Counted from the first letter of the stretch, positions 6,091 to 63,599 are shown. The stretch is 64,000 nucleotides of DNA from Pseudobdellovibrionaceae bacterium (GCA_034005165.1 JAVEVE010000006.1:36690-100689); one strand, 5' to 3'. The notes: generated from the sequence alone by a model not told the origin. Made by a program: numbers and translations.

Positions 6091-6130
6091 GTGACAAACC
6101 TGCTAAAAGGAAAATTTTTTATGAAAATAT

Positions 6131-6499
6131 GCCAGCCGGTCTATAAGCCGGATTCTGTACTCCGAAGAGCGAGAACCATTCATCTGGGATTTGCGTTACC
6201 ACAAACCTCTAGCAACCTACCCGGGCAACGATCCGGAAACGGATCATTTGTCGCCCCTATTTGGTCTTGCTTCCGGTGGGGTTTGCCGTGCCTGTCCATC
6301 ACTGGACGAGCGGTGCGCTCTTACCACACCGTTTCACCCTTACCTGATCCTGTTATCCTTTTTCAAGGCAGGCCATCGGCGGTTTACTCTCTGTTGCACT
6401 TTCCGTCAGGTCACCCTGCCCGGTCGTTAACCGGCACCGTGTTTCCGTGAAGTCCGGACTTTCCTCCCGCATGTGCAGGCGGTCCTCCGACCAGCTGGC
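6131..6499 (-). ncRNA. rnpB: RNase P RNA, bacterial type A
   Basis: Minus strand carries GGAGGAAAGTCCGGAC (universal GAGGAAAGUCCGG core), GGTAAGGGTGAAACGGTG and the 3' ACAGAATCCGGCTTATAG motif. The P1 helix forms between 5' GCCAGCTGGTC and 3' GACCGGCTGGC (11 bp, one G-U). The overlapping + strand ORFs at 6091..6450 and 6191..6430 are spurious. Confidence 0.93.
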
Positions 6500-27470: not shown

Positions 27471-28088
27471 ATGCATTTAAGTACCGAATTTGTCCGACAA
27501 AAATTTGTTGATCTGAGGTGTACAGCCTCTGATCTTGTCCGTGCTCTGAATTTGCCGGATACCCCGCTAATGAGCCGCGTTATGCAGCATAAGATTACAG
27601 AATTTTCGACAGAAAGTGCTTCAGAACGCGAACAGCATTTTGATCTTTTGCAGGATATTGCCATGACCTATCTTGACCAATACGGGCGTGATTATTTCCA
27701 TGTTTCAAACTCCAGAGATATTCCGGACAAGGTTGCCGCCCTGATTCTATGGTTATCGCCTATAGACCGGTCCCTTCCTGAACATGTCTTTGATGCAGAA
27801 GATCGTGCATTTGCATCCCGTCTGGTTGGTAAAATCGGGGCACCCCACTTGATGAATCCTGATGAACGTTATGTCGATCTGGTCGAAACACATTTCGAAT
27901 ATTCCAGATGTGCTGAAATGGTTATCTCTTTATCCAAGATGTTTTCCAGCAACCCTATTCATAGCATTGAATGCATTCGCAACGGATGCAGCGGAGGCTC
28001 CCGCTTGGAACAAGACACAAGAAGTTTATTGAATGACGTGATGCGGACGCATTTCTCGCTCACTGACAGGAAACCTTTTATTCACTAG
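27471..28088 (+). CDS. Hypothetical protein (205 aa), possible N-terminal HTH
   Basis: Only long ORF in this gap, on the strand opposite the flanking mre/mrd genes. TASDLVRALNLPDTPLMSRVMQHK looks HTH-like. No family recognised. Confidence 0.45.
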   Translation: MHLSTEFVRQKFVDLRCTASDLVRALNLPDTPLMSRVMQHKITEFSTESASEREQHFDLLQDIAMTYLDQYGRDYFHVSNSRDIPDKVAALILWLSPIDRSLPEHVFDAEDRAFASRLVGKIGAPHLMNPDERYVDLVETHFEYSRCAEMVISLSKMFSSNPIHSIECIRNGCSGGSRLEQDTRSLLNDVMRTHFSLTDRKPFIH

Positions 28089-28630: not shown

Positions 28631-29539
28631 CTATTTGCTTCTTATGTTCTGGGATGGTCCGGAAATCAATGAATCTAGACTCTTTCTGACATCCGGATTT
28701 ATTGGCTTCTCGACGATCTGGACATACCCTGCACTAGACGGATCAGAGAATAATCTTACCCTAATATGTCCACCTGATACGGAAGTTATTTCTCCGATAG
28801 GAAGCCCTGCCGGAAACTGTCCACCTGTTCCGGATGTTGTGATGCGCAGCCCTTTGCTTACAAGTACATCAGGAGGCAAATGAACCAATGTCAGTGTATC
28901 ATCGTTATTGCCTGTCAGAATTGCACGTTGGTTAATTCCTTCAATTACGACAGGGATATGAGAGTTAATGTCTGTCAGGAGCAATACACGAGATGCTTTG
29001 TTTCCGACTTCAATCACACGCCCGATCATACCCTTCCCACCCATTACGGCTTGACCTTCCTGAACACCATCTGCTGTTCCGGCCTGAAGCAATAATGTAC
29101 GCACATAAGATGAGGCTGAATCACTGATTACGCGGGTTGTGATATAGCTTTGCTCAGGCTCGGGCAGCACGTTCAACAAGTCTTTCAAAGACTGATTTTC
29201 TGCGCGCAATAGCATGGCTGTTTGATACCATTCTTTTAATTGATCGTTTTCCGCCTTTAGCCTGGCATTTTCTGTACGGATTTGACTAAGCCCTGTTAGC
29301 TCGCCAACCGTGTCTCCGATAAAGCGGAACGGCGCTCCAACAATAGAAACTACCGGAGAGAACGCATCAGATGCGGCCGTACGCGGATTTTTCCAAACGT
29401 CAGGATTAAACATAGAGATCAGAAGTAGCAGGCCCGCCAAAGATGTCAGCACGACTGGAGAATATCTAGACAGCCGAATAGCAATCGAGGCTGCGCGAAG
29501 GGCGCGGCGTCTGCTCATTCTTCTGTTATATGAAACCAT
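28631..29539 (-). CDS. mreC: Rod shape-determining protein MreC
   Basis: 302 aa. N-terminal TM, a coiled coil (ENARLKAENDQLKEW) and beta-barrel domains with G.VIGRV..V and the LLTD motif. Confidence 0.9.
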   Translation of the reverse strand: MVSYNRRMSRRRALRAASIAIRLSRYSPVVLTSLAGLLLLISMFNPDVWKNPRTAASDAFSPVVSIVGAPFRFIGDTVGELTGLSQIRTENARLKAENDQLKEWYQTAMLLRAENQSLKDLLNVLPEPEQSYITTRVISDSASSYVRTLLLQAGTADGVQEGQAVMGGKGMIGRVIEVGNKASRVLLLTDINSHIPVVIEGINQRAILTGNNDDTLTLVHLPPDVLVSKGLRITTSGTGGQFPAGLPIGEITSVSGGHIRVRLFSDPSSAGYVQIVEKPINPDVRKSLDSLISGPSQNIRSK

Positions 29540-29712: not shown

Positions 29713-31032
29713 TTACTCTTTAATATGTATATTGGAAAGCTCACGACTAATAGCAATAAAGGCGTTAATCAAGTCTGCCTGCTCCGGTGCATCATAGTAG
29801 TTCCCCGGGTTTGAGGCACAGTTCCTGAAATAATCCTTGGTGGAATTATTGATGCCAGAAGTAAATGTTACCGTATATATGGTAATACCCTCCTCCTTCA
29901 TATTTTCACATGTCTGAGCCAATTTTTCGTCCAGATCATGGTCTGTCAGGCGAAGCGTTGTCCATGGACCATACCCGCTATAGCTGCTGCTGCCACCACC
30001 GATATTGTTATCTCCGTCCGTCATCAATAGAGCAACTTTTCTGACCTTCTTATCACTCCAACTGGCGCCTTCACGGAATGGTGCTTCCGGAGAGAGAACA
30101 CGGTAGCCCCAAACCATACCCAAATTGCTAAGCGTGTTACCTGATGCATAGAGCGTATCAATCTTATTGGATATGTCCCAGTAAGAACTCGTCAGTGGCA
30201 AAATATAGGATTTATTACATCCTGAGTTTTTATTGCTGTTATAAGGGTTACGGTACATATCCCATTTCCAGCCAGTCTCATAATTTTCAGTGTCTTGCGG
30301 AGTAGTTCGAGCCAAAACGCATCCCCACCATTTCGTGCTTTTTGATTGATCAAAACTTGTTCCGTACGAATTATTTACAAAAGCAGTATCATAGGTCGTT
30401 CCATCAGGGTTCTTTCCCAAACCATATGGGCCGACATTCACGGCAGCAGAGAAAGGAACAATCCCGATTTTGACCAGACTGGAGCAGTACTCGTCTTTAC
30501 ACAATGTATCCAGAAAAGCTCTTGATGCCGTTTTCAATGTTCCTATATTATTATTGGTCGACATGGATCCCGTGACATCCACGACCAGTGCCACTTCTAA
30601 ACCAAGGATCTCCCGAGTGACGCGTGTGTTGGCGGCAACTGTCATTTGGTCGACCCCCAGTAACCTCGAAAATGAAGTGTCGTAATCTGCCTTTGCACTC
30701 ACCAGAATATCTTCCCCGACGATCTGAATATTCAGATCATAAGTCGCTCCGATTTTCTGTGATGGGTAATTCTGATAAAAAAACTGGTTCACTTTTGCGT
30801 AGACATCATCATCTGTTTTTGCTGCTGCAGCAGCCGCCAAAGCCGCGGCATCCAGAGCATGTGACAACCGTTTCTGAACCATATAGGCCATCGACATATC
30901 AACAGCCATCCCTGCACTTCCGACAACAACAGGAACAATCATTGCGAATGCTACTGCAGTCGCTGCTGCATTCTCTCTTATGAAGGACTTCAGTATCTGC
31001 TTCAAATTTGTGCATTCTTCCAAAATGTTCAT
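29713..31032 (-). CDS. TadG-like pseudopilin with von Willebrand factor A domain
   Basis: 439 aa. The N-terminus ENAAATAVAFAMIVPVVVGSAGMAVDMSMAY matches the Flp pilus-assembly TadE/G-like signature. A vWA domain follows, with MIDAS-like VVDVTGSMS and LLMTDGDNN. Confidence 0.78.
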   Translation of the reverse strand: MNILEECTNLKQILKSFIRENAAATAVAFAMIVPVVVGSAGMAVDMSMAYMVQKRLSHALDAAALAAAAAAKTDDDVYAKVNQFFYQNYPSQKIGATYDLNIQIVGEDILVSAKADYDTSFSRLLGVDQMTVAANTRVTREILGLEVALVVDVTGSMSTNNNIGTLKTASRAFLDTLCKDEYCSSLVKIGIVPFSAAVNVGPYGLGKNPDGTTYDTAFVNNSYGTSFDQSKSTKWWGCVLARTTPQDTENYETGWKWDMYRNPYNSNKNSGCNKSYILPLTSSYWDISNKIDTLYASGNTLSNLGMVWGYRVLSPEAPFREGASWSDKKVRKVALLMTDGDNNIGGGSSSYSGYGPWTTLRLTDHDLDEKLAQTCENMKEEGITIYTVTFTSGINNSTKDYFRNCASNPGNYYDAPEQADLINAFIAISRELSNIHIKE

Positions 31033-31035
31033 TTC

Positions 31036-31563
31036 TTATCCTCCCCATGTTACGGTTGGACTTCTACGACCTCTGGCGAACGCCACTTCGCTAAAATCAA
31101 TATCGTCAGTAAAGTATTTCGAAAACATAGGCTCGTAACCATATTGAACGGTTACTATAATAATTCCCTCACCCTCAGGCGCAAGGCCTGCAACGCTTGC
31201 TACGGCAGCATCATTCTGTGGCATATTCCGTGTTTCTCTCCACAGGACTTCCGGATTTTGGTCCTCATCAAATCTGATGCTTACAATATCTATTCCGAAT
31301 GATGAGGTTCCGTATGGCTCGAATGCCAATTTTGCGCCTTCAATCAAGTCATTCAATTCTGTAGGATCAATCGATCTGTTCCTTGAGACAAGATCTGCAG
31401 CTATTTGTGAAGATGTGATTGTTTTAGCAGATAACGTAATTCCGTTTCCTAAATCAAATACTCCCATCAACAAGACAAGCATAACAGGGAACAGCATTGC
31501 GGCTTCCAGAACAGCAACACCGTCCTCGTTACGTATCCAGTTGTGGAATAGAGTTTTCATCAT
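31036..31563 (-). CDS. TadE-like pseudopilin
   Basis: 175 aa with N-terminal EDGVAVLEAAMLFPVMLVLLMGVFDLG (TadE N-terminal domain pattern). 4-nt overlap with the upstream tadE-like gene. Confidence 0.72.
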   Translation of the reverse strand: MMKTLFHNWIRNEDGVAVLEAAMLFPVMLVLLMGVFDLGNGITLSAKTITSSQIAADLVSRNRSIDPTELNDLIEGAKLAFEPYGTSSFGIDIVSIRFDEDQNPEVLWRETRNMPQNDAAVASVAGLAPEGEGIIIVTVQYGYEPMFSKYFTDDIDFSEVAFARGRRSPTVTWGG

Positions 31564-32111
31564 AGTTCGTCAACCACCAGCTCTACGTCATATGGTTCTG
31601 TTTCAAGAACGATTGTTGAGATAAATCTTTTTGAGTTTCCCTCGCCATCCGACATGAATTCAGCAATCAACGGGGTCATCAATTCATATTGATAAGCTGC
31701 ACGAATAAGGACAACATCATTAACCGATCCTGCATCAAATCCTTCGGAGTCCAGATTCCCATCCTCATCATAGCTGGCTGCATGATTTGAAAAGTCCGAG
31801 AATCCATTCAAATGGACAACTTCATACTGGATTTTTGAGCACTCCAGAAAAACACGCGCAGAGTCACATAATGCATCCTTGAACATTTGTTCAGGATCAC
31901 CTTTTGTCTGTTGAACCTGTCCTGTCTTTATCAGACGAGCGGCTTCACTGGTTGCATGGTCCAGCGTGCTCATACCTACAAACATCATGGACATCTCGAT
32001 GATCCCAAGAAGCAAATAAACAACAGGCATAGCTACCATAGCAAATTCTACGGCTGTTGCGCCTCTGTCATCTTTGACCCATGTCTTGCGTATAGAAAAA
32101 CCCATTCCCAA
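31560..32111 (-). CDS. TadE-like pseudopilin
   Basis: 183 aa. DDRG/ATAVEFAMVAMPVVYLLLGIIE fits the Tad prepilin-like G/xxxxEF processing motif plus a hydrophobic helix. The ATG at 32105 is a likely alternative to the TTG at 32111. Confidence 0.75.
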   Translation of the reverse strand: MGMGFSIRKTWVKDDRGATAVEFAMVAMPVVYLLLGIIEMSMMFVGMSTLDHATSEAARLIKTGQVQQTKGDPEQMFKDALCDSARVFLECSKIQYEVVHLNGFSDFSNHAASYDEDGNLDSEGFDAGSVNDVVLIRAAYQYELMTPLIAEFMSDGEGNSKRFISTIVLETEPYDVELVVDEL

Positions 32112-32169
32112 ATCCCAAGCGACAGAAACATTTTAATTAAAAATTTTTCTAAATTCTGCCCATAAAAAA

Positions 32170-32187
32170 ACATGCAACATGCATGTT
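32170..32187. promoter_or_regulatory. ACATGCA direct repeat ending in a 12-bp perfect palindrome AACATGCATGTT
   Basis: Located in the 143-bp gap between the 163-aa membrane protein gene and the first tadE-like gene. Could be an operator or a weak hairpin. Confidence 0.25.
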
Positions 32188-32254
32188 CTTCTTTATTATA
32201 CTAGCTATCGGGAATAAAAAATTTGCTAAACTATGCTTTCATTCATCTAAAATT

Positions 32255-32746
32255 TTATGTTTCTTCTTTGCGTTTTTCAGGGAACCCATACCGATCGAGT
32301 GGGAGTTCTCCTGTGACCTCCTCACCCCATCTGACAATCAGCTCTTGTTGCATTTTTGCTATTTGTTTCAATCTGCTATACCCTTTTTGGACCATCATGG
32401 TAGCGATAATACCCGACAATCCCCAATCAATCAGGTATCCGACCAACGCTCCGGAGTACATAATTACAATATTTAAAGGGTCAGTTAGAATTTCCAGTGT
32501 GTGCGCCAGGTCATGATCTTTTTGTACCAACTGATACCAGAATGGAAAAACTGCAGCCAAATTCATGAATGTGATCGTGAGTGTCCTAGTTTTCTGGGCG
32601 GACCTATCTACAAATCGAGCAATAATAGAGGGCAGCATCCCAATAAAGAACAAAACCGTTGTCGCGAGAATAGCAACAGATGTCATGAAAGCTGCGGCCA
32701 ACAAAACTCTATACTTGAATGAATTTTTCTTTTTTTTTGCTGCCAT
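32255..32746 (-). CDS. Small polytopic membrane protein (163 aa), unknown family
   Basis: Lys-rich N-terminus, 3-4 hydrophobic helices and an acidic/basic C-terminal tail. Starts 8 nt after the stop of the kinase-like gene. Confidence 0.6.
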   Translation of the reverse strand: MAAKKKKNSFKYRVLLAAAFMTSVAILATTVLFFIGMLPSIIARFVDRSAQKTRTLTITFMNLAAVFPFWYQLVQKDHDLAHTLEILTDPLNIVIMYSGALVGYLIDWGLSGIIATMMVQKGYSRLKQIAKMQQELIVRWGEEVTGELPLDRYGFPEKRKEET

Positions 32747-32754
32747 ATTTCCCT

Positions 32755-34800
32755 CTATACTGCGATCATGAAGAACAGATAGATCAAAATAACCAGACCG
32801 GCGATTCCGCCGGAGACCATTGTTGATATTTGCTGGCCTGTACTTTTACCGTATGACTTGTTTGTTTCCAGCTCTTTGCTAAGACGCGCATGTTCATTTC
32901 TCAATCTCTGGAACTGATCCATTGCTATGGCAAATAATTTTGTGTCATCCTGAATTTGTTTTGCATTGTTGAATATCTCGGCTAGAAGAGTTAAATCACC
33001 TTTTGCCTTCACTCTATCCACTTCTGCCTTTGTAGATTTTCTTCGTTCACGGTCGTGATAACGATTAGTCAACACATCAAGGTGCTCTCCTATCCACAAT
33101 GATAGGTTAGGCAGGGCATGAATTTTTTCCCTTTGCTGAACTTTAGAGAAAATCTTTATGGCTGCCGATATCTGGCGATGCCGTTCATCAGACATTAAAT
33201 CCGCAGAAAATGCTTCGATTGCCTGTCTGTCATGCATAAAGAGATAGGCCACAATATGGCGATCAAAAAACCACGCGGGCTTTGATTTTTCTGCCCCTAT
33301 TCCATTTAAGGCAATCAATAAATCCTTTGATGATCTGACATAGTATTGTTTCAGTTTATCACTTAGGCATCTGGCCGACGGCGATAGAAAATACGCACAG
33401 CGCTCCAATCCAAATCCTGCTGATTTCTGAAGAAGATACATACGGCAGCTTTCGAATTTTCCAGGCTCTTCACCTAAAGGGAAGCCGGCATTATATCGAC
33501 CCGATGCCCAATGTGGAACAATTTCTCCCTGAATAATTTCGACAAAGACATTCAAATCTTTTTCACTGACTATAGCATCCACTAATAAATGTCCGAAATG
33601 CTCAGGAAAAAACACATGTCCCTTATAAAAAACAGGAAAGCTAGGCGCTAAAGCCATTGTCAAATAGCAGACAAGACGCTCTGCATAGTTTGCACCGGAG
33701 GAGTTTCTTTTGGCGAGCTCAACGGCATTTTCGTATCTTTCCTCATATTCTTTAACCTGAATTGCTCTATTCAGCCAAAGATAAAGTTCTCCAGTTTCAA
33801 CCATTTCAACTGTGGCAGACGGGTCTTTATAGAGCTGCATCGCCAGAACGTCAGGACGAAAATATTTCTTTTTCTTAAATTCTATGGGGCGCGTGGATTT
33901 CGGCACAGGACGGCTTCCTTGCTTGGCAGTAACACGACGACCATCAAGCCATTCTTTAATATCCCAGATTGTCCAGCGTGTTGCGATGTCATCGCTTAGA
34001 AGGCCACGAAGCACTTCGATAATCTGCCCAGGGAAGCGATCACGACTTGTAACCAGATTGAATGTCCCATGCTCAAGCTTATGCAGAATAATTTCTTCGC
34101 GGTTCATGCCTTCCGAGAAATCATGCGGGGCAATCATCAAAGCCAGAGAAACTCCCAACGCATAGATATCATCCGCATTGGTAGCTTCCCCCTTCACATG
34201 CGGGTTCGCAAGAGATCTTTCAATGGTCTCGTACAGCGCAGACTGGGCGAATCCGCTTGGCACAGAAAGACATTCGCCTAATTGCACATTCTCGAAGTTT
34301 TTGGATTCTCCATCGAGAATATTTTCCAGACAGATATTTCCGTGTGCCACTCCACGATCATGCAAAGCGGCAATAGCATCAACCAAATTCAGGAAAATAG
34401 AGTTCAAAACCAAATCAAGTTTTAATCCCAAAGATTTGATTTCTTTCATGGAAGAAAGTGGCTTACCCGGAAATCCTTCATATATAAAGACGTATTTCTC
34501 TTTTCTTTCCGGTGTCCATTCTACAACTCCGGAGGCAGCTATCTTTTGAAGCGAACTTGACATTGCGTTCATATATTTATGAACAATGTTGAGACGTGGC
34601 ACCAAATTATCAGGACATACAAGCGCATAGCCCTTGCCGCCGTTTTTTGTTTCGGCTTCATAAGCCTTCGCCGTTCCTCTGTCAAGGAACGGCAGTGGTT
34701 TTCCGGGAAAGATTTTGATGTCACCTTTTAGGGTAACTTCAGCAACAGTCGATGTCGTTGCTTTCTCTTTTTCTTTTGGTTTATCGTCTTGCTGGGCCAT
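32755..34800 (-). CDS. Tail-anchored protein-kinase-like protein, predicted catalytically inactive (pseudokinase), 681 aa
   Basis: Residues ~40-300 follow the Hanks kinase layout, but LHDRGVAHGNICLENIL replaces HRDLKPEN, VQLGECLS replaces DFG, and YALVC replaces VAIK. The ADDIYALGVSLALMI (DxWSxG-like) motif is retained. A long helical region and a coiled coil follow, then a single C-terminal TM (MVSGGIAGLVILIYLFFMIAV). Confidence 0.6.
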   Translation of the reverse strand: MAQQDDKPKEKEKATTSTVAEVTLKGDIKIFPGKPLPFLDRGTAKAYEAETKNGGKGYALVCPDNLVPRLNIVHKYMNAMSSSLQKIAASGVVEWTPERKEKYVFIYEGFPGKPLSSMKEIKSLGLKLDLVLNSIFLNLVDAIAALHDRGVAHGNICLENILDGESKNFENVQLGECLSVPSGFAQSALYETIERSLANPHVKGEATNADDIYALGVSLALMIAPHDFSEGMNREEIILHKLEHGTFNLVTSRDRFPGQIIEVLRGLLSDDIATRWTIWDIKEWLDGRRVTAKQGSRPVPKSTRPIEFKKKKYFRPDVLAMQLYKDPSATVEMVETGELYLWLNRAIQVKEYEERYENAVELAKRNSSGANYAERLVCYLTMALAPSFPVFYKGHVFFPEHFGHLLVDAIVSEKDLNVFVEIIQGEIVPHWASGRYNAGFPLGEEPGKFESCRMYLLQKSAGFGLERCAYFLSPSARCLSDKLKQYYVRSSKDLLIALNGIGAEKSKPAWFFDRHIVAYLFMHDRQAIEAFSADLMSDERHRQISAAIKIFSKVQQREKIHALPNLSLWIGEHLDVLTNRYHDRERRKSTKAEVDRVKAKGDLTLLAEIFNNAKQIQDDTKLFAIAMDQFQRLRNEHARLSKELETNKSYGKSTGQQISTMVSGGIAGLVILIYLFFMIAV

Positions 34801-34890: not shown

Positions 34891-37559
<2,669 letters not shown>

Positions 37560-55368: not shown

Positions 55369-56142
55369 TTATTTGGACGGAACGACATCCAGATAGATGC
55401 GGTGCCCGTATGCACCAGACGGATTTAAGCGGGCAGTGGTCAAAACCTTTGCCGTCATCTTCAACTGAATAACAAGGTGAGAGCCTGTTTCGTCGGAACT
55501 AGCAGAAAAAGACTTCACCATCGGAGAAGACTTTAAGTCCATACTCTTGGTTGCGACCCACTTGTTTCCAGGCAATTCTACCATCAAAATATGCTCGCCG
55601 TTATCAAGATCAAATTTCATCTCAGCCGGCTTTGTCGTATCCAGAACAATGCGTGTGACATCATTTTTCTGTTCCCCAATACGAATAGAAGTTACTGCGG
55701 CTTCTTTGGGGCTTACAGCAACAGCCTTTTCTTGTTGTTCCGGTTTTTGCACAGGCTTGGGAGCTAACATAGGTGGCACAGGTTTGGGTGCTACCGGCTG
55801 TTGAGCTATAGGCTTCGGAACTTGTTGTGCATCTGCCGTCACGTTATAACTGGCCTCGATCCGGTCCAACTCAAGTGATAAAGCTCGAAAATGGCTTTGC
55901 ATCACATCCATTTTTTGCAAAGTCGGCTTTGCCCTTGCAACATCCCCCTCCAATCGGGACACTCGGGCCTCGATCATAGACAGTCTTTCGCCATCCAGTG
56001 TCTCTTTACTGACTTCAGGAACAGGGTTTTGGGGCATTACTGTGTCGTCTGGAGCTTTTTGAGGCTGTTGGACAGGTGCTGCCTGGCAGGCAGCCAAAGC
56101 GAGCGTCGAAAGTAATAAAAGGGATAAATGGTTCTTGCGCAT
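55369..56142 (-). CDS. Lipoprotein with coiled coil, Pro-rich linker and C-terminal AMIN-like domain
   Basis: From ATG 56142: lipobox LALAAC, a coiled-coil segment, PKPIAQQPVAPKPVPPMLAPKPVQKP, then VTSIRIGEQKNDVTRIVLDTTKPAEMKFDL...LMVELPG (AMIN-like). Confidence 0.55.
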   Translation of the reverse strand: MRKNHLSLLLLSTLALAACQAAPVQQPQKAPDDTVMPQNPVPEVSKETLDGERLSMIEARVSRLEGDVARAKPTLQKMDVMQSHFRALSLELDRIEASYNVTADAQQVPKPIAQQPVAPKPVPPMLAPKPVQKPEQQEKAVAVSPKEAAVTSIRIGEQKNDVTRIVLDTTKPAEMKFDLDNGEHILMVELPGNKWVATKSMDLKSSPMVKSFSASSDETGSHLVIQLKMTAKVLTTARLNPSGAYGHRIYLDVVPSK

Positions 56143-56226
56143 GGGTCCTAAAGTGTCGGGAGAATCGGTAATCGTCAATTCCTCCCCTATTTCCGCACAG
56201 AATTATCCACAAACCTTCTTGCTGTT

Positions 56227-59499: not shown

Positions 59500-60543
59500 T
59501 TATTTCTTACCGCGGACACGCAAACGTCCGTCTTTCTCGATACCCGGCAAAACTTCTGCCTGGATACTCAACACTTTCGTTCCTTTTTGACCACTTCCTC
59601 CACCGAGATCAGCTGCATAAGCAGGAGGAACAAGGGCTTCCCATTCTATTTTTCCTTTTGCGACTTCAAAGCGAACCAGTGTCCCGTCAATCTTTGTCAG
59701 GTCATCTAAAAGCTGCTGGACACGAAACGTATATTTCATGACCTCGTTGTTGGATAACTCGTAGGCATCTGTAAGCAGCTTTGTGCTTGCAGCATCGGTT
59801 TGTTGCTTCACCTGATCGAGATTTCTGTTCAAGAAATTGATCATAATATATTGCGCCGCAATAAAGGCCATCAGCACTACACTGACGCAAACACCTGCAA
59901 TCAACAAAATTCTTGCCGTAGCACGGGAGAGTTGTTCTGTTCTTAATTGGCGGTTGCGCCACGGGATAATATCTGCGAGCTGGTCGTTAATTGTAATGAA
60001 GTTTGCATCCATGCTCTGGATACGCGGCAGAATGGTTCGAGCTGCTCCCAAAAAGATTTGCATACGACCGGTTTCCTGATCCCAGCGCAAAGCACCGGCA
60101 GCTCCGTCCTTTTCGTATATGTAGACTGTATCTTTATCCCAGAAGTCGCTGTTCCCCGGAAGAGCTGCCGCCAAAGGGCACCAGCTGTCAGGGTGTGAAA
60201 CCATAACTGTCGATGGGCACGCCAGATACCAAACACGATCCCCTTCGATAGAATAGACATAGTGAACTTTTTCTGTCGCACAGGCTTGAGATGCAGCATT
60301 CCAAACTGCTTCATCTTCCATCCCCGGGACACACGGGATTGATCCCCCAACCAATTCGGACGGCAAGTACGGATTCAGGTCACGGATAAAATATTTTGCC
60401 TCGCCAGCAAGCTTCGTTCCTACTGTTGGCTGTGGTTTTTGCTGAATGCGCTCTTCACCCGAGACATTCGCATTTTCGCTGCCGGATACAAAGACTGGAG
60501 GATTCTCATTCTTATCTTTTTTAGGGCCTAATCCAAATGCCAT
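59500..60543 (-). CDS. Bitopic membrane protein, possible GspL/PilM-PilN-like assembly component of the adjacent type IV filament-like module
   Basis: 347 aa. ~205-aa cytoplasmic N-domain, one TM (ILLIAGVCVSVVLMAFIAAQYIMI), then a coiled-coil plus a small C-terminal domain. 1-nt overlap with the platform gene stop. The topological analogy is the only evidence. Confidence 0.4.
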   Translation of the reverse strand: MAFGLGPKKDKNENPPVFVSGSENANVSGEERIQQKPQPTVGTKLAGEAKYFIRDLNPYLPSELVGGSIPCVPGMEDEAVWNAASQACATEKVHYVYSIEGDRVWYLACPSTVMVSHPDSWCPLAAALPGNSDFWDKDTVYIYEKDGAAGALRWDQETGRMQIFLGAARTILPRIQSMDANFITINDQLADIIPWRNRQLRTEQLSRATARILLIAGVCVSVVLMAFIAAQYIMINFLNRNLDQVKQQTDAASTKLLTDAYELSNNEVMKYTFRVQQLLDDLTKIDGTLVRFEVAKGKIEWEALVPPAYAADLGGGSGQKGTKVLSIQAEVLPGIEKDGRLRVRGKK

Positions 60544-61763
60544 TACATTTTTCCTTCCATTAAACCACCCATCATACTGTCCATGCTCATATTCATAACA
60601 GTCAGGGCGTAGATCGCGCTTCCGAAACCAATCGCCAAATAGACACCTGTAAATAAAAAGGCCAGCCAGACAATTAGTTTATGCTTCAAACGAGCTGCCT
60701 GAGCGCGAAGCTCAGCAATTGATTCCATGATTGTAGCAACCTGAGATAAATCAGACAAGGTGGCCAGTTCCAGCCTTTCCGAACGGCTTAAAGGCTCTCT
60801 GTCGAGAGCAGTTCCCAATCCTACCCCACGCGAGAGCTGTTCGTTTGCAGCGTCCCAATATGCCGCAACTTCCGGAGAGTTAGATGCCTCGGACGATTGC
60901 TGGAGTGTATCGTTAATAGGCACGTTGGAGCGCAGCATTCTGGACGCTGCTGACATCGAGTCAGCAAAACTCAGATCCCTCATATAGCCGCCAATCAAAG
61001 GGATTTTTCTGACAATACGTTGTGTCGGCCAATCCCGTTTTCCGCGGTTGATAAAGAAAGAGAAAACGCACCAGCCCATAAACCCTGCAAATCCGAATGC
61101 TATCCAGATGAGAATATCCCATGTAAGTTCAAGGTTATGAGTTACGCGCACATATTTTTCCAGATCAGGTCCTTCTTTCGGGGCGTTGTCCTTAAACCAG
61201 TTCAGAACCGTTCCTTTTCCCCAAAACAGGGATTGCACAATTGTGACCACATCAAAGGCCAACCAGCCCATCGTGCCCATAATCGCACCCTTATTCTTAC
61301 GCTTCTGGGTAATCGCGTTAATGGCATAGGGAATACCTTCGGTCAGTTTCCCTGCACGCTCGCTGGCGGCAATAATAGCCAAGGTTGAACGATCAAAAAT
61401 CTGAAGTGCTTTCAAAGCATCCATCAAACCCAAACCTCTAGCCAAGGCCTCTCTGGCAGGTGCCAGAATATTCTGGCGGGTTGGGTTGGTTTCGGCTTCA
61501 ATAATTTTCCACAAAGCTACACCAGGCGATGTCGACGTTGCACGGAACATAATCCCGCGAAGCAACTGAACTTGCCACCAGCTGGAACGGGCCAGCAATC
61601 TCTCAAGAGGGGTACGGGAGTGCGCACGAATGGTTAGAACGTGACCGCCTTTTTTCCTGACAGCATCCCGAACATCACTTTCAGTCGGAAGATACATGGT
61701 CTCGGTCGCAGTCCGCGGACCTGAACGACTTTCATATGCGATCTGGACAATCCATTGTTGCAT
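60543..61763 (-). CDS. GspF/PilC-family inner-membrane platform protein
   Basis: 406 aa. N-terminal small domain pattern (..Y.....G......ESDVRDAVRKKGGHVLTI), two T2SSF-like repeats (ALARGLGLMDALK; QLSRGVGLGTALD) and three TM segments. Confidence 0.75.
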   Translation of the reverse strand: MQQWIVQIAYESRSGPRTATETMYLPTESDVRDAVRKKGGHVLTIRAHSRTPLERLLARSSWWQVQLLRGIMFRATSTSPGVALWKIIEAETNPTRQNILAPAREALARGLGLMDALKALQIFDRSTLAIIAASERAGKLTEGIPYAINAITQKRKNKGAIMGTMGWLAFDVVTIVQSLFWGKGTVLNWFKDNAPKEGPDLEKYVRVTHNLELTWDILIWIAFGFAGFMGWCVFSFFINRGKRDWPTQRIVRKIPLIGGYMRDLSFADSMSAASRMLRSNVPINDTLQQSSEASNSPEVAAYWDAANEQLSRGVGLGTALDREPLSRSERLELATLSDLSQVATIMESIAELRAQAARLKHKLIVWLAFLFTGVYLAIGFGSAIYALTVMNMSMDSMMGGLMEGKM

Positions 61764-61769
61764 CTATTT

Positions 61770-63599
61770 TTACGACTCCAGATAATTGAGCGCAGATTTC
61801 GGGTCAACAAACCCACTAATAACCAAATCAATCAGTCCGTTTTTCCGTGTATGAACGATAACACCTTCTTCGTGAACGATGTCGTTTACGTTTTGCATCA
61901 AAGCACGATACACTCTGTCACGGTCTGCCGGTCCCAAGGTAATCAGCAACGCATCCAGCAACAATGTCCGTCCAGAAATACCTGTCCGGTTACACAGATC
62001 GCACCCGCTCATGTTCCGGCGACGAACAATGGCAGCCGGTTCGATTCCGAGCATATATATCTCGTCTTGGTCAAGATAATCTCCTGCGCGCCCCTGATTT
62101 GCACAACCCTGGCACAACGTCTTTACCAAGCGCTGGTTAATAATTGCGCGAACCTGTTGCGCCAAGGTAAATGTCGACGCGCGTTCACGCTCTGATGGCA
62201 TAAGAGATTTTAAACGCTCGAAGGTCTGGAGAGCTGTGTCCGCGTGAACCGTTGATATCACTGTGTGACCCGATTCAGCAGCTTTCAAAGCTGTTTCCAC
62301 AGTATCACTATCACGCAATTCCCCGATAACAATATAATCCGGATCGTGACGCATTGCTGCGCGGATCAAATCGGAGAATTCTCCGCCGGGCATTCCGGGA
62401 CGAACCTGCCATTGCGTTGCGTATCTCAATTCATATTCGATCGGATCTTCAATAGTCAGAACATGTTTTCTGCGGCGGTCGATATACTGGATACAGGCAT
62501 AAAGTGTTGTTGTTTTACCGGAACCTGTCGGCCCGGAGAGCATCACCAGACCTCCCCCCCCTTTAATTTCAGGAGATAGAGACTGGGCCAGATAATTTCC
62601 GACATCTTCGTGACGTTTAAAAAGCTCATCGAAGCCTTTCAAGGACGCACGGTCCAACAAACGCAAGGTCAGCTTTTCACCATCCTGCGCCTGAGGTCCT
62701 GCGGCGACACGAACATCGATTACACGACCTTGCCATGTAAAACTGAAGCGTCCGTCTTTCGGCGCTATCCTGTCGCCGAAGTTCATCCCGGCATCCCGCT
62801 TAATCAGCGTAGTGAGACGGGCCATGGCGTCAGAAGGCATGATGTGAATTGGAACCAAGTCACCGTCAATACGGTATCTGATCCAGTTCGGGTTGGTTAT
62901 GTTGTTGTCTTGCAGAATGTGAATATCGGATACACGCATCTGCAAAGCTTCTGCGAGCATGTCACGCATAAACTGGTTTAACAACAAACCGTTATCGGTG
63001 TCGTTTAACCATGAAGCCAATGTCTTTTCGCATCGGTCAGCCGACAAATCATGAACTGCACGCATTGTCTGTAATAACTCTGCGCGATCCCACACTTCCG
63101 CTTCGATACGTTCAACCATCAGACCAGAACGATTAGCTGTGGAGATAAGGGCATCAGTCTGCCGCGTGTTCAGTTCGTTCAACGGCGCAATTTTCAATAC
63201 GCCATCGTGGAGACCAATCAAGTGAATACTAAGCGGCAACCATGACTGAACCGGTAAGATGGAGCGCAATTGGTCACCATTAGCATGGTCTCGAATTCCA
63301 ACCACTTCAGTTTCATCATCAGAAGAAACTGGCGTTCCGGCCATATCCATCAGCTGATCAATAGAACGCGAAATTCCTTGCTCCATAAGGATAACACGTT
63401 CACGCTGGACCATGTCCAGATAGCGTTCACGACCTTCCTTGGCTTTAGCTTTACGGCGATCACTGTACTGGCGGCGCTCGACACCGTCCGGAGGAACATG
63501 TTTGTCTTGACGACGATCTGCACCAGAGCGAATTTCTTCGCTTTCCGGTATCACCGCATCATCACGTTTAAACTCTTCTTTTCCGGATTCGTTATCCAT
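61770..63599 (-). CDS. GspE/PilB-family type II secretion / type IV pilus assembly ATPase with a charged N-terminal extension
   Basis: 609 aa. Walker A LSGPTGSGKTTT, VLTIEDPIEYEL, Walker B/Asp box HDPDYIVIGELRD, His box GHTVISTVHA, and tetracysteine CQGC...CDLC. A T2SSE_N-like segment is preceded by ~90 Arg/Asp/Glu-rich residues. Confidence 0.88.
   Translation of the reverse strand: MDNESGKEEFKRDDAVIPESEEIRSGADRRQDKHVPPDGVERRQYSDRRKAKAKEGRERYLDMVQRERVILMEQGISRSIDQLMDMAGTPVSSDDETEVVGIRDHANGDQLRSILPVQSWLPLSIHLIGLHDGVLKIAPLNELNTRQTDALISTANRSGLMVERIEAEVWDRAELLQTMRAVHDLSADRCEKTLASWLNDTDNGLLLNQFMRDMLAEALQMRVSDIHILQDNNITNPNWIRYRIDGDLVPIHIMPSDAMARLTTLIKRDAGMNFGDRIAPKDGRFSFTWQGRVIDVRVAAGPQAQDGEKLTLRLLDRASLKGFDELFKRHEDVGNYLAQSLSPEIKGGGGLVMLSGPTGSGKTTTLYACIQYIDRRRKHVLTIEDPIEYELRYATQWQVRPGMPGGEFSDLIRAAMRHDPDYIVIGELRDSDTVETALKAAESGHTVISTVHADTALQTFERLKSLMPSERERASTFTLAQQVRAIINQRLVKTLCQGCANQGRAGDYLDQDEIYMLGIEPAAIVRRRNMSGCDLCNRTGISGRTLLLDALLITLGPADRDRVYRALMQNVNDIVHEEGVIVHTRKNGLIDLVISGFVDPKSALNYLES

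Follow-up and report, generated by a model that had tools for sequence, protein, structure and literature searches.

A predicted pseudokinase and small membrane protein gene pair next to a TadE-TadE-TadG trio in a Pseudobdellovibrionaceae bacterium

Five open reading frames (ORFs) on the minus strand lie between purA and mreC in a 64,000-nucleotide stretch of DNA from a Pseudobdellovibrionaceae bacterium (GCA_034005165.1, JAVEVE010000006.1:36690-100689; hereafter the window), and encode, in this order, a kinase-like protein (KIN), a small membrane protein (SML), two TadE-like proteins (TadE1 and TadE2) and a TadG-like protein with a vWA domain. These genes are best explained as two adjacent but separate units, namely the KIN-SML pair and an independently regulated Tad tip set that was split from flp-cpa by a clade-specific rearrangement, a reading to which we assign a probability of about 0.65. 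An earlier interpretation made from the DNA alone (the sequence-only reading) had proposed one undescribed five-gene module. Its ORFs, coordinates, spacings, purA and mreC flanks and domain calls were borne out, and so the observation is confirmed, while the module interpretation is only partly supported: the KIN-SML pair appears to be undescribed, but a single module is not supported, and detached tip trios are already known in Myxococcus (PMC12075869).

Expression, intergenic element and gene order at the SML-TadE boundary

Micavibrio aeruginosavorus ARL-13 carries these genes in the same order, and its expression indices for the attack and attachment phases are available (Table 1); among the relatives of the window, the usual order is purA-KIN-SML-TadE-TadE-TadG-Flp-CpaA-CpaB-CpaC-CpaD. 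At the boundary between GMV_526 and GMV_527, which corresponds to SML and TadE, attack-phase expression rises about 100-fold and the phase bias is reversed. In addition, an expressed 23-nt intergenic 5' segment was assigned to GMV_527 alone, and the flp pilin of M. aeruginosavorus was reported among the most highly expressed attack-phase genes (PMC3189940). The two halves are, therefore, separate transcription units as read in this relative of the window's organism, which goes against the co-transcription supposed by the sequence-only reading, for which unrelated transcription of the two halves had itself been named as a refuting observation.

Table 1. Expression indices of Micavibrio aeruginosavorus ARL-13 genes (PMC3189940, Additional file 4)
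Gene	Assignment and length	Attack phase	Attachment phase
purA		0	6.2
GMV_525	KIN, 2148 bp	0.8	1.6
GMV_526	SML, 522 bp	0.3	2.0
GMV_527	tadE-like	86.9	9.8
GMV_528	TadE	50.1	4.7
GMV_529	TadG, 1347 bp	77	9.5
flp		705	385
prepilin peptidase		19.9	2.2
CpaB		3	10.1
CpaF		8.8	2.9

The gap between SML and TadE1 holds a conserved element (coordinates in Table 2). A hairpin with a terminator-like match lies in this gap and recurs in related loci, where the 5 bp at its base (ACATG/CATGT) are near-invariant, the inner pairs covary and the loops differ; it is preceded by an A-rich stretch or A-tract and followed by the invariant T-run TTTTTTTATG. The 13-mer ATGTTTTTTTATG is invariant across 16 aligned loci. 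Allowing at most one mismatch, it is found 58-97 nt past the SML stop codon in 22 of the 38 loci in which TadE comes after SML and in none of the 20 loci in which it does not; a few one-mismatch matches are its only other occurrences in loci totalling about 1.1 Mb, and the window has no second site. The loci carrying the element are L007, L008, L011-L014, L021-L026, L028, L029, L034, L037, L044, L046, L048, L055 and L056 (L numbers denote related loci).

Upstream of the hairpin, the window has a -10-like TATAAT of the TAnnAT kind, as well as a degenerate TTAA-N7-TTA(A/G)-like box with the shape of a CtrA box, which is weak in the window (two mismatches) and averages 1.2 mismatches in the loci versus 2.2 in shuffled sequences; its identity as a CtrA box is suggestive. 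No Rfam family matched the intergenic element at the gathering threshold, nor at E <=1 on the gene strand. Judged by these patterns, the element may be a putative terminator of KIN-SML, a promoter or leader of TadE, or both.

Gene neighbourhoods were compared by calling ORFs in 59 loci and labelling them with iterated hidden Markov models (HMMs) seeded with the window genes and the Tad genes of L003; the species-level informative loci number 46 downstream of SML and 47 upstream of KIN, and all genomes come from one lineage. The iterated Flp, TadE and TadG models cross-contaminated one another via the common N-terminal helix, and labels were, therefore, given by best score and length, which leaves the presence or absence calls unaffected. 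Directly downstream of KIN-SML, 35 of the 46 loci (76%) have a Tad gene, and directly upstream of KIN, 39 of the 47 (83%) have purA. The full series KIN-SML-TadE-TadE-TadG-Flp-CpaA-RcpC-secretin-CpaD was found in 18 of the 46 loci, and the series KIN-SML-Flp-CpaA onward, in which the trio is missing, in three (L033, L035 and L059), so that the run reaches CpaD in 21. The window order, with mreC-mreD-PBP2 after TadG, occurs in seven loci; in another seven the trio is followed by other genes or the contig end, such as LepA in L023 or BON, a methylase, a binding protein and CoxB/CoxA in L051; and in the remaining 11 no Tad gene lies within 10 kb of KIN-SML. Past CpaD, L059 encodes a ParA-like CpaE, a T2SSE-family CpaF and two T2SSF-family proteins (TadB and TadC), which makes a complete Tad locus; L059 was the only locus read beyond CpaD, and it has no trio.

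Among these layouts, the placement of Flp-CpaA directly after SML in L033, L035 and L059 is the mirror image of that in the window. As well, the trio of L043 (12684-14880) runs in the order TadG-TadE-TadE, and in L046 (9673-19206) KIN, SML, glmM and the secretin are each divided into two or three ORFs, by frameshifts or poor assembly.

In a crude KIN tree (neighbour-joining, midpoint-rooted), adjacency to a full Tad locus is widespread and paraphyletic, while the window class forms one derived clade, within which the trio was lost from the site at least three times in nested positions (L016; L017/L030; L020/L001/L027). The deepest KIN branches show purA-KIN-SML without Tad genes. The trio had been described as detached from any Tad machinery; this does not hold for the lineage, where the pair normally heads a complete Tad locus. 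KIN and SML were never split (58 of 58 informative loci, with gaps mostly of -7 to +20 nt), nor was TadE-TadE-TadG, and each of them behaves as an indivisible block. The junctions purA|KIN, SML|TadE and TadG|Flp, by contrast, were each broken several times independently at broadly similar rates, and adjacency alone, therefore, cannot separate a functional tie from inherited synteny; purA has no plausible functional link to KIN. For the window, a rearrangement in the ancestor of its clade would have put mreCD-PBP2-rodA after TadG. A horizontal-transfer island was also considered and ruled out, since GC content and skew pass smoothly into the flanks and synteny is stable across the lineage.

The same neighbourhoods could be read differently, with KIN-SML as an adaptor dedicated to the Tad pilus or its tip and the five genes as one functional module even if separately transcribed; the membrane pseudokinase would then be a scaffold or switch for assembly, placement or signalling of prey contact. 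The frequent presence of a Tad gene after KIN-SML fits this proposal, as do the three loci in which Flp directly follows SML despite the missing trio, and KIN-SML-TadEEG without flp-cpa arose in several lineages. A precedent is EssB/YukC of the type VII secretion system b (T7SSb), a membrane pseudokinase built into an envelope machine as a structural component, and the many FHA proteins of the predatory Kil Tad-like system hint at phospho-type signalling in the surroundings of Tad machines. However, the proposal has to accommodate the expression step and opposite phase bias in ARL-13, the 11 species-level loci with intact KIN-SML and no nearby Tad gene, which include the deepest KIN branches, and an adjacency to purA that is at least as well kept; moreover, the loci revealed neither an FHA or phosphatase partner nor an active kinase, though they were not systematically scanned for such domains. 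The neighbourhood comparison thus upholds the linkage expected by the sequence-only reading in part, and we consider a dedicated Tad adaptor unlikely, though a serious alternative.

Several observations weigh against the reading as two separate units. The transcriptome dates from 2011 and was obtained in a relative, the nearest sampled KIN to which (from the metagenome-assembled genome (MAG) L034) is about 41% identical to that of the window, and the orthology of GMV_525 and GMV_526 was assigned by synteny and size only (compare L034). For a regulator, low expression that is uncoupled from that of its targets would not be unusual. The adjacency of SML to a Tad gene extends across KIN identities from 30 to 90%, which could mean a functional tie. 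Furthermore, the five-gene layout lacking core Tad genes has at least three origins (in the window clade, in L022-24 and in L051), suggesting that a departure of flp-cpa tends to leave the trio beside KIN-SML.

The KIN-SML pair

The Pkinase family (PF00069) matches residues 98-282 of KIN with 27.8 bits, which is below the Pfam gathering score of 31.7, while the AlphaFold model of the protein, built from a 38-sequence alignment, is confident (pLDDT 89.5, pTM 0.82). In this model, a kinase fold at about residues 20-295 is followed by a helical domain at about 296-610, a long helix at 613-646 and a transmembrane (TM) helix at 652-680. Foldseek identified a bilobal kinase fold by its similarity to PknA, Stk1 and PknB (E about 1e-7, target-normalised TM-scores 0.70-0.77), and the best match in the PDB was PknA 4x3f (E=3.8e-8, target-normalised TM-score 0.74). 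The kinase-like character proposed for the 681-aa protein thus withstood structure prediction, including the missing catalytic residues and the tail anchor.

Alignment with Staphylococcus aureus Stk1 places HGN at the HRD motif and QLG at the DFG motif of KIN, and the HRD- and DFG-equivalent positions are never acidic in any of the 38 aligned family members. The predicted beta3 strand carries a near-invariant Cys (C62) and no Lys in the family alignment. The catalytic-loop N160, the APE-like E191, D211 and G216 of subdomain IX and R275 of subdomain XI, on the other hand, are invariant. Based on these residues, KIN is a predicted pseudokinase, in which structural positions are kept and the beta3 Lys, HRD Asp and DFG Asp are missing.

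An active atypical Ser/Thr kinase, or a part of an anti-phage kinase system, would share the confident fold, and the KIN family does keep the catalytic-loop Asn together with a conserved acidic residue after the DFG-equivalent Gly. Weak domain-level matches to the kinases of MADS6, Mokosh (MkoA) and PD-T4-6 point in the same direction. Nevertheless, the three catalytic residues are missing family-wide, and no full-length match to these defence systems was obtained: the matches cover the kinase domain only, with 25.7 bits against a cut-off of 460 in NCBIfam, where weak kinase-domain matches were all that KIN produced, and 14-47 bits in PADLOC, compared with equivalog cut-offs of at least 460 where these are defined. 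The setting is one of stable housekeeping synteny with housekeeping and Tad neighbours, not a defence island. A catalytic or anti-phage role of KIN is, accordingly, very unlikely.

Outside the kinase region, KIN had no PDB match by sequence, and residues 296-681 modelled alone (pLDDT 90.8) had no structural relative in the PDB (best E=0.39, TM-score <=0.23), so that the function of this C-terminal domain is not readable from its fold. The long helix leads into the terminal hydrophobic helix, which ends the protein, and KIN is, therefore, predicted from the model to be tail-anchored with almost its whole mass in the cytoplasm.

SML, a small hydrophobic membrane protein according to its hydropathy, is encoded 8 nt downstream of KIN and matched no Pfam, NCBIfam or PADLOC family. 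It contains the conserved motifs GMLPT..A..DR and MN.AGCFPF as well as a charged C-terminal tail, RWG.EV.G..PLD..GFP, and a word-index search recovered nine homologues. Compared with L007, dN/dS was 0.018 for KIN and 0.029 for SML.

As separate units, the two halves suggest the following role for this pair. KIN would combine a dead Hanks-kinase fold with a large helical domain, held by a C-terminal anchor at the cytoplasmic face of the inner membrane; it would be made together with SML from tightly abutting genes and may form an inner-membrane complex with it. KIN might work as a scaffold or a conformational switch rather than as a phosphotransferase, and the pair would probably serve a lineage-wide, low-abundance envelope function of the growth phase instead of being a dedicated pilus part.

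The family is large. A word-index search returned 41 full-length KIN homologues with 25-90% identity, nearly all of them metagenomic proteins, and an exhaustive profile search returned 1,222 representatives of 50%-identity clusters at E <=1e-30, the top 150 of which are 614-788 aa long except for one 532-aa fragment; ten of the profile matches were looked up and had no informative name. A pattern scan of species-representative genomes yielded 49 KIN loci, nearly all in MAGs labelled Micavibrio sp., Pseudobdellovibrionaceae or Alphaproteobacteria bacterium, and these loci are biased to closer relatives, because the pattern was derived from a 20-sequence subset, the 38-sequence alignment being too divergent. 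NCBI places Micavibrio within Pseudobdellovibrionaceae, and Micavibrio was treated as an alphaproteobacterium in the genome paper of M. aeruginosavorus. KIN-SML apparently has no published description; a literature search joining pseudokinases and proteobacterial Tad loci found none, the only full-text match being a paper on the type VII secretion system.

The TadE-TadE-TadG trio

TadE1 and TadE2 match PF07811 with 47.6 and 28.0 bits (cut-off 22.9), and TadG matches PF13400 (Tad) with 29.0 bits (cut-off 22.3) and PF00092 (VWA) with 27.0 bits (cut-off 23.8); the TadE/TadE/TadG-vWA calls of the sequence-only reading, therefore, hold above the Pfam cut-offs. The genes are tightly packed, with an overlap of 4 nt between TadE1 and TadE2 and a gap of 3 nt between TadE2 and TadG. 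In TadE1, a prepilin-peptidase-type motif with predicted cleavage at G/ATAVEF and an N-terminal hydrophobic helix can be read from the translation, and an alternative ATG start at 32105 would give a protein of 181 aa, in agreement with the L007 orthologue. TadE2, a TadE/TadF-like minor pilin, likewise has an N-terminal hydrophobic helix, with the predicted prepilin motif G/VAVLEAA. The vWA domain of TadG resembles that of CpaL and has an intact MIDAS (D152-x-T154-x-S156, T300 and D339), the residues of which are conserved in 35-36 of 36 orthologues.

The trio is probably the minor-pilin tip or priming set of a Tad (type IVc) pilus with its own regulatory region. By analogy with published models, it would assemble through the N-terminal helices into a cap exposing the MIDAS/vWA domain of TadG for adhesion, the target of which is probably prey.

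Selection was estimated against L007, which is 90% identical and at which synonymous sites are saturated (pS 0.65-0.74). With this reference, dN/dS was 0.034 for TadE1, 0.025 for TadE2 and 0.015 for TadG, and the values of all five genes (0.015-0.034) are on a par with purA (0.023), mreC (0.007) and PBP2. By these ratios, all five genes are under strong purifying selection, and the trio is maintained, not decaying. The peptidase and assembly machinery for the trio are, therefore, presumably encoded elsewhere in the genome. A search with the Micavibrio-type CpaF gave 7,999 matches at E <=1e-100 with generic names, none of which was tied to a genome of the window clade.

Locally, the core machinery is lacking, as had been stated. 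No further Flp, CpaA, RcpC/CpaB, secretin or CpaD was detected in the 64-kb window by HMMs built from related loci, nor CpaE, CpaF, TadB or TadC with the L059 proteins as queries; the gaps contained no Flp remnant, and the rest of the window was free of Flp-type motifs. Core genes do not lie beside the minor pilins within 64 kb, and the window, therefore, does not contain a complete Tad locus. This absence, together with the three or more losses of the trio from the site within the same clade, could suggest that the trio of the window clade is a decaying remnant of a lost Tad locus. However, none of the 11 related loci of the window class has a disrupted ORF, the proteins are 91-93% identical to those of L007 at saturated synonymous sites with dN/dS like that of housekeeping neighbours, and the MIDAS and prepilin motifs are intact, which makes decay barely credible.

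The statement on local machinery needs one qualification, namely a non-Tad ATPase and a platform protein at 60543-63599. The GspE/PilB-like ATPase (609 aa, T2SSE) is far below all equivalog cut-offs; it is accompanied by a GspF/PilC-like platform protein (406 aa, T2SSF) and then by a 347-aa ORF without a family, and, at a distance of 4 kb and on the far side of glycosyltransferase genes, an AMIN-domain protein is encoded. The cluster may run on beyond the end of the window.

This pair raises the question of whether the trio was taken over by another type IV filament or by a machine like the type II secretion system (T2SS), and the genome paper of M. aeruginosavorus mentions pil genes at scattered sites as well as an incomplete T2SS, which might draw on pilus proteins. 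Yet the leader motifs of the trio are of the Flp/Tad type, the two loci are unlinked and 27 kb apart, and the ATPase misses all equivalog cut-offs by a wide margin. We also know of no precedent for TadE or TadG on a non-Tad platform, and a takeover is highly improbable.

Known systems and other features of the window

Tips composed of minor pilins have recently been described in Myxococcus, where TadE/TadF/TadG-like proteins of the Kil Tad pilus were predicted to form heterotrimeric "Tips" and three of four tip clusters lie outside the machinery clusters; TadE/F/G of other bacteria were modelled as similar tips with TadG as the backbone, and the authors report FHA proteins and no kinase (Herrou et al. 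2025, PMC12075869). According to a review, surface sensing in Caulobacter involves CpaL/TadG, a minor pilin with vWA/MIDAS. The trio shares with TadE/TadF/TadG of Aggregatibacter, CpaJ/CpaK/CpaL of Caulobacter and KilL/KilM/KilN of Myxococcus the composition of two small pilins and one large one, a variable C-terminal domain on the large pilin (here vWA/MIDAS, as in CpaL), and tightly packed genes in the same order, which in Myxococcus are likewise often away from the machinery. Unlike these sets, its sequence relatives are confined to the Micavibrio lineage, and in most relatives it is the first block of the Tad locus instead of the last.

The related loci also resemble Caulobacter cpa and Aggregatibacter tad in carrying flp, the prepilin peptidase, CpaB/RcpC, the secretin and CpaD in canonical order, to which L059 adds CpaE/TadZ, CpaF/TadA, TadB and TadC; they differ in having the minor pilins ahead of flp and KIN-SML at the start of the locus. 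What is new here is the KIN-SML family and the conserved element upstream of TadE, not a five-gene module, as the detached trio is of a kind already described.

KIN and EssB/YukC have in common an N-terminal cytoplasmic pseudokinase, a single-helix anchor and a location beside genes for an envelope apparatus. EssB, however, has a sizeable extracytoplasmic C-terminal domain, whereas in KIN at most a few residues follow the TM helix, and a helical domain of about 350 aa with no PDB match lies in the cytoplasm; no sequence relationship between the two was detected. Similar to PknA, PknB, Stk1 and PpkA of the type VI secretion system (a kinase with a periplasmic vWA domain), KIN would be membrane-anchored with its kinase domain in the cytoplasm, but it differs from all of them in having neither the beta3 Lys, HRD Asp and DFG Asp nor an extracytoplasmic sensor such as PASTA or vWA.

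Little is understood of how Micavibrio-like bacteria, which are epibiotic predators, attach to prey and recognise it. The trio, with a MIDAS/vWA tip, selected in the window clade and induced in the attack phase in ARL-13, is a candidate prey-binding tip in parallel to the Kil tips. KIN-SML includes a pseudokinase with a confidently predicted domain lacking a PDB relative, and it heads a Tad locus in most genomes. It is tempting, though doubtful, to regard KIN-SML as a lineage-specific module physically coupled to a predatory Micavibrio-like Tad pilus, which might serve to place or gate the pilus machine, or might pass on a contact with prey that the vWA tip has sensed. In that case, a type IV filament system would have its first pseudokinase component, comparable to EssB in T7SSb, and such filaments a new class of accessory factor, and the invariant hairpin and T-run upstream of TadE would be part of a dedicated attack-phase control region. 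If KIN-SML is not linked to Tad, it would still be a conserved envelope pair in a lineage of interest as a "living antibiotic".

The features of the window are listed in Table 2.

Table 2. Positions of the genes and sequence elements in the 64-kb window
Feature	Position	Strand	Description
KIN	32755-34800	minus	ORF, 681 aa
SML	32255-32746	minus	ORF, 163 aa
SML-TadE1 gap	32112-32254	minus	putative intergenic regulatory region, 143 bp
-10-like TATAAT	32200-32195		
Hairpin, 5' arm	32186-32180		
Hairpin, loop	32179-32177		
Hairpin, 3' arm	32176-32170		
13-mer	32173-32161		ATGTTTTTTTATG
TadE1	31560-32111	minus	ORF, 183 aa from TTG; PF07811
TadE2	31036-31563	minus	ORF, 175 aa; PF07811
TadG	29713-31032	minus	ORF, 439 aa; PF13400 and PF00092
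purA	34891-36213		named via Pfam match of the L007 orthologue
mreC	28631-29539		named via Pfam match of the L007 orthologue
205-aa ORF	27471-28088	plus	between mreD and PBP2
AMIN-domain protein	55369-56178		
ATPase, platform protein and 347-aa ORF	59500-63599	minus	region
GspF/PilC-like platform protein	60543-61763	minus	406 aa; T2SSF
GspE/PilB-like ATPase	61770-63599	minus	609 aa; T2SSE
RNase P RNA	6128-6498	minus	bacterial class A, 310 bits

No tRNA gene was detected in the whole 64 kb. The 205-aa ORF, which lies on the opposite strand to its neighbours and matched no Pfam, NCBIfam or PADLOC family, has a counterpart in the same place in L007 (205 aa) and L008 (216 aa) and is absent from L009, L010 and L011. 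Finally, the window also contains a bacterial RNase P RNA of class A.

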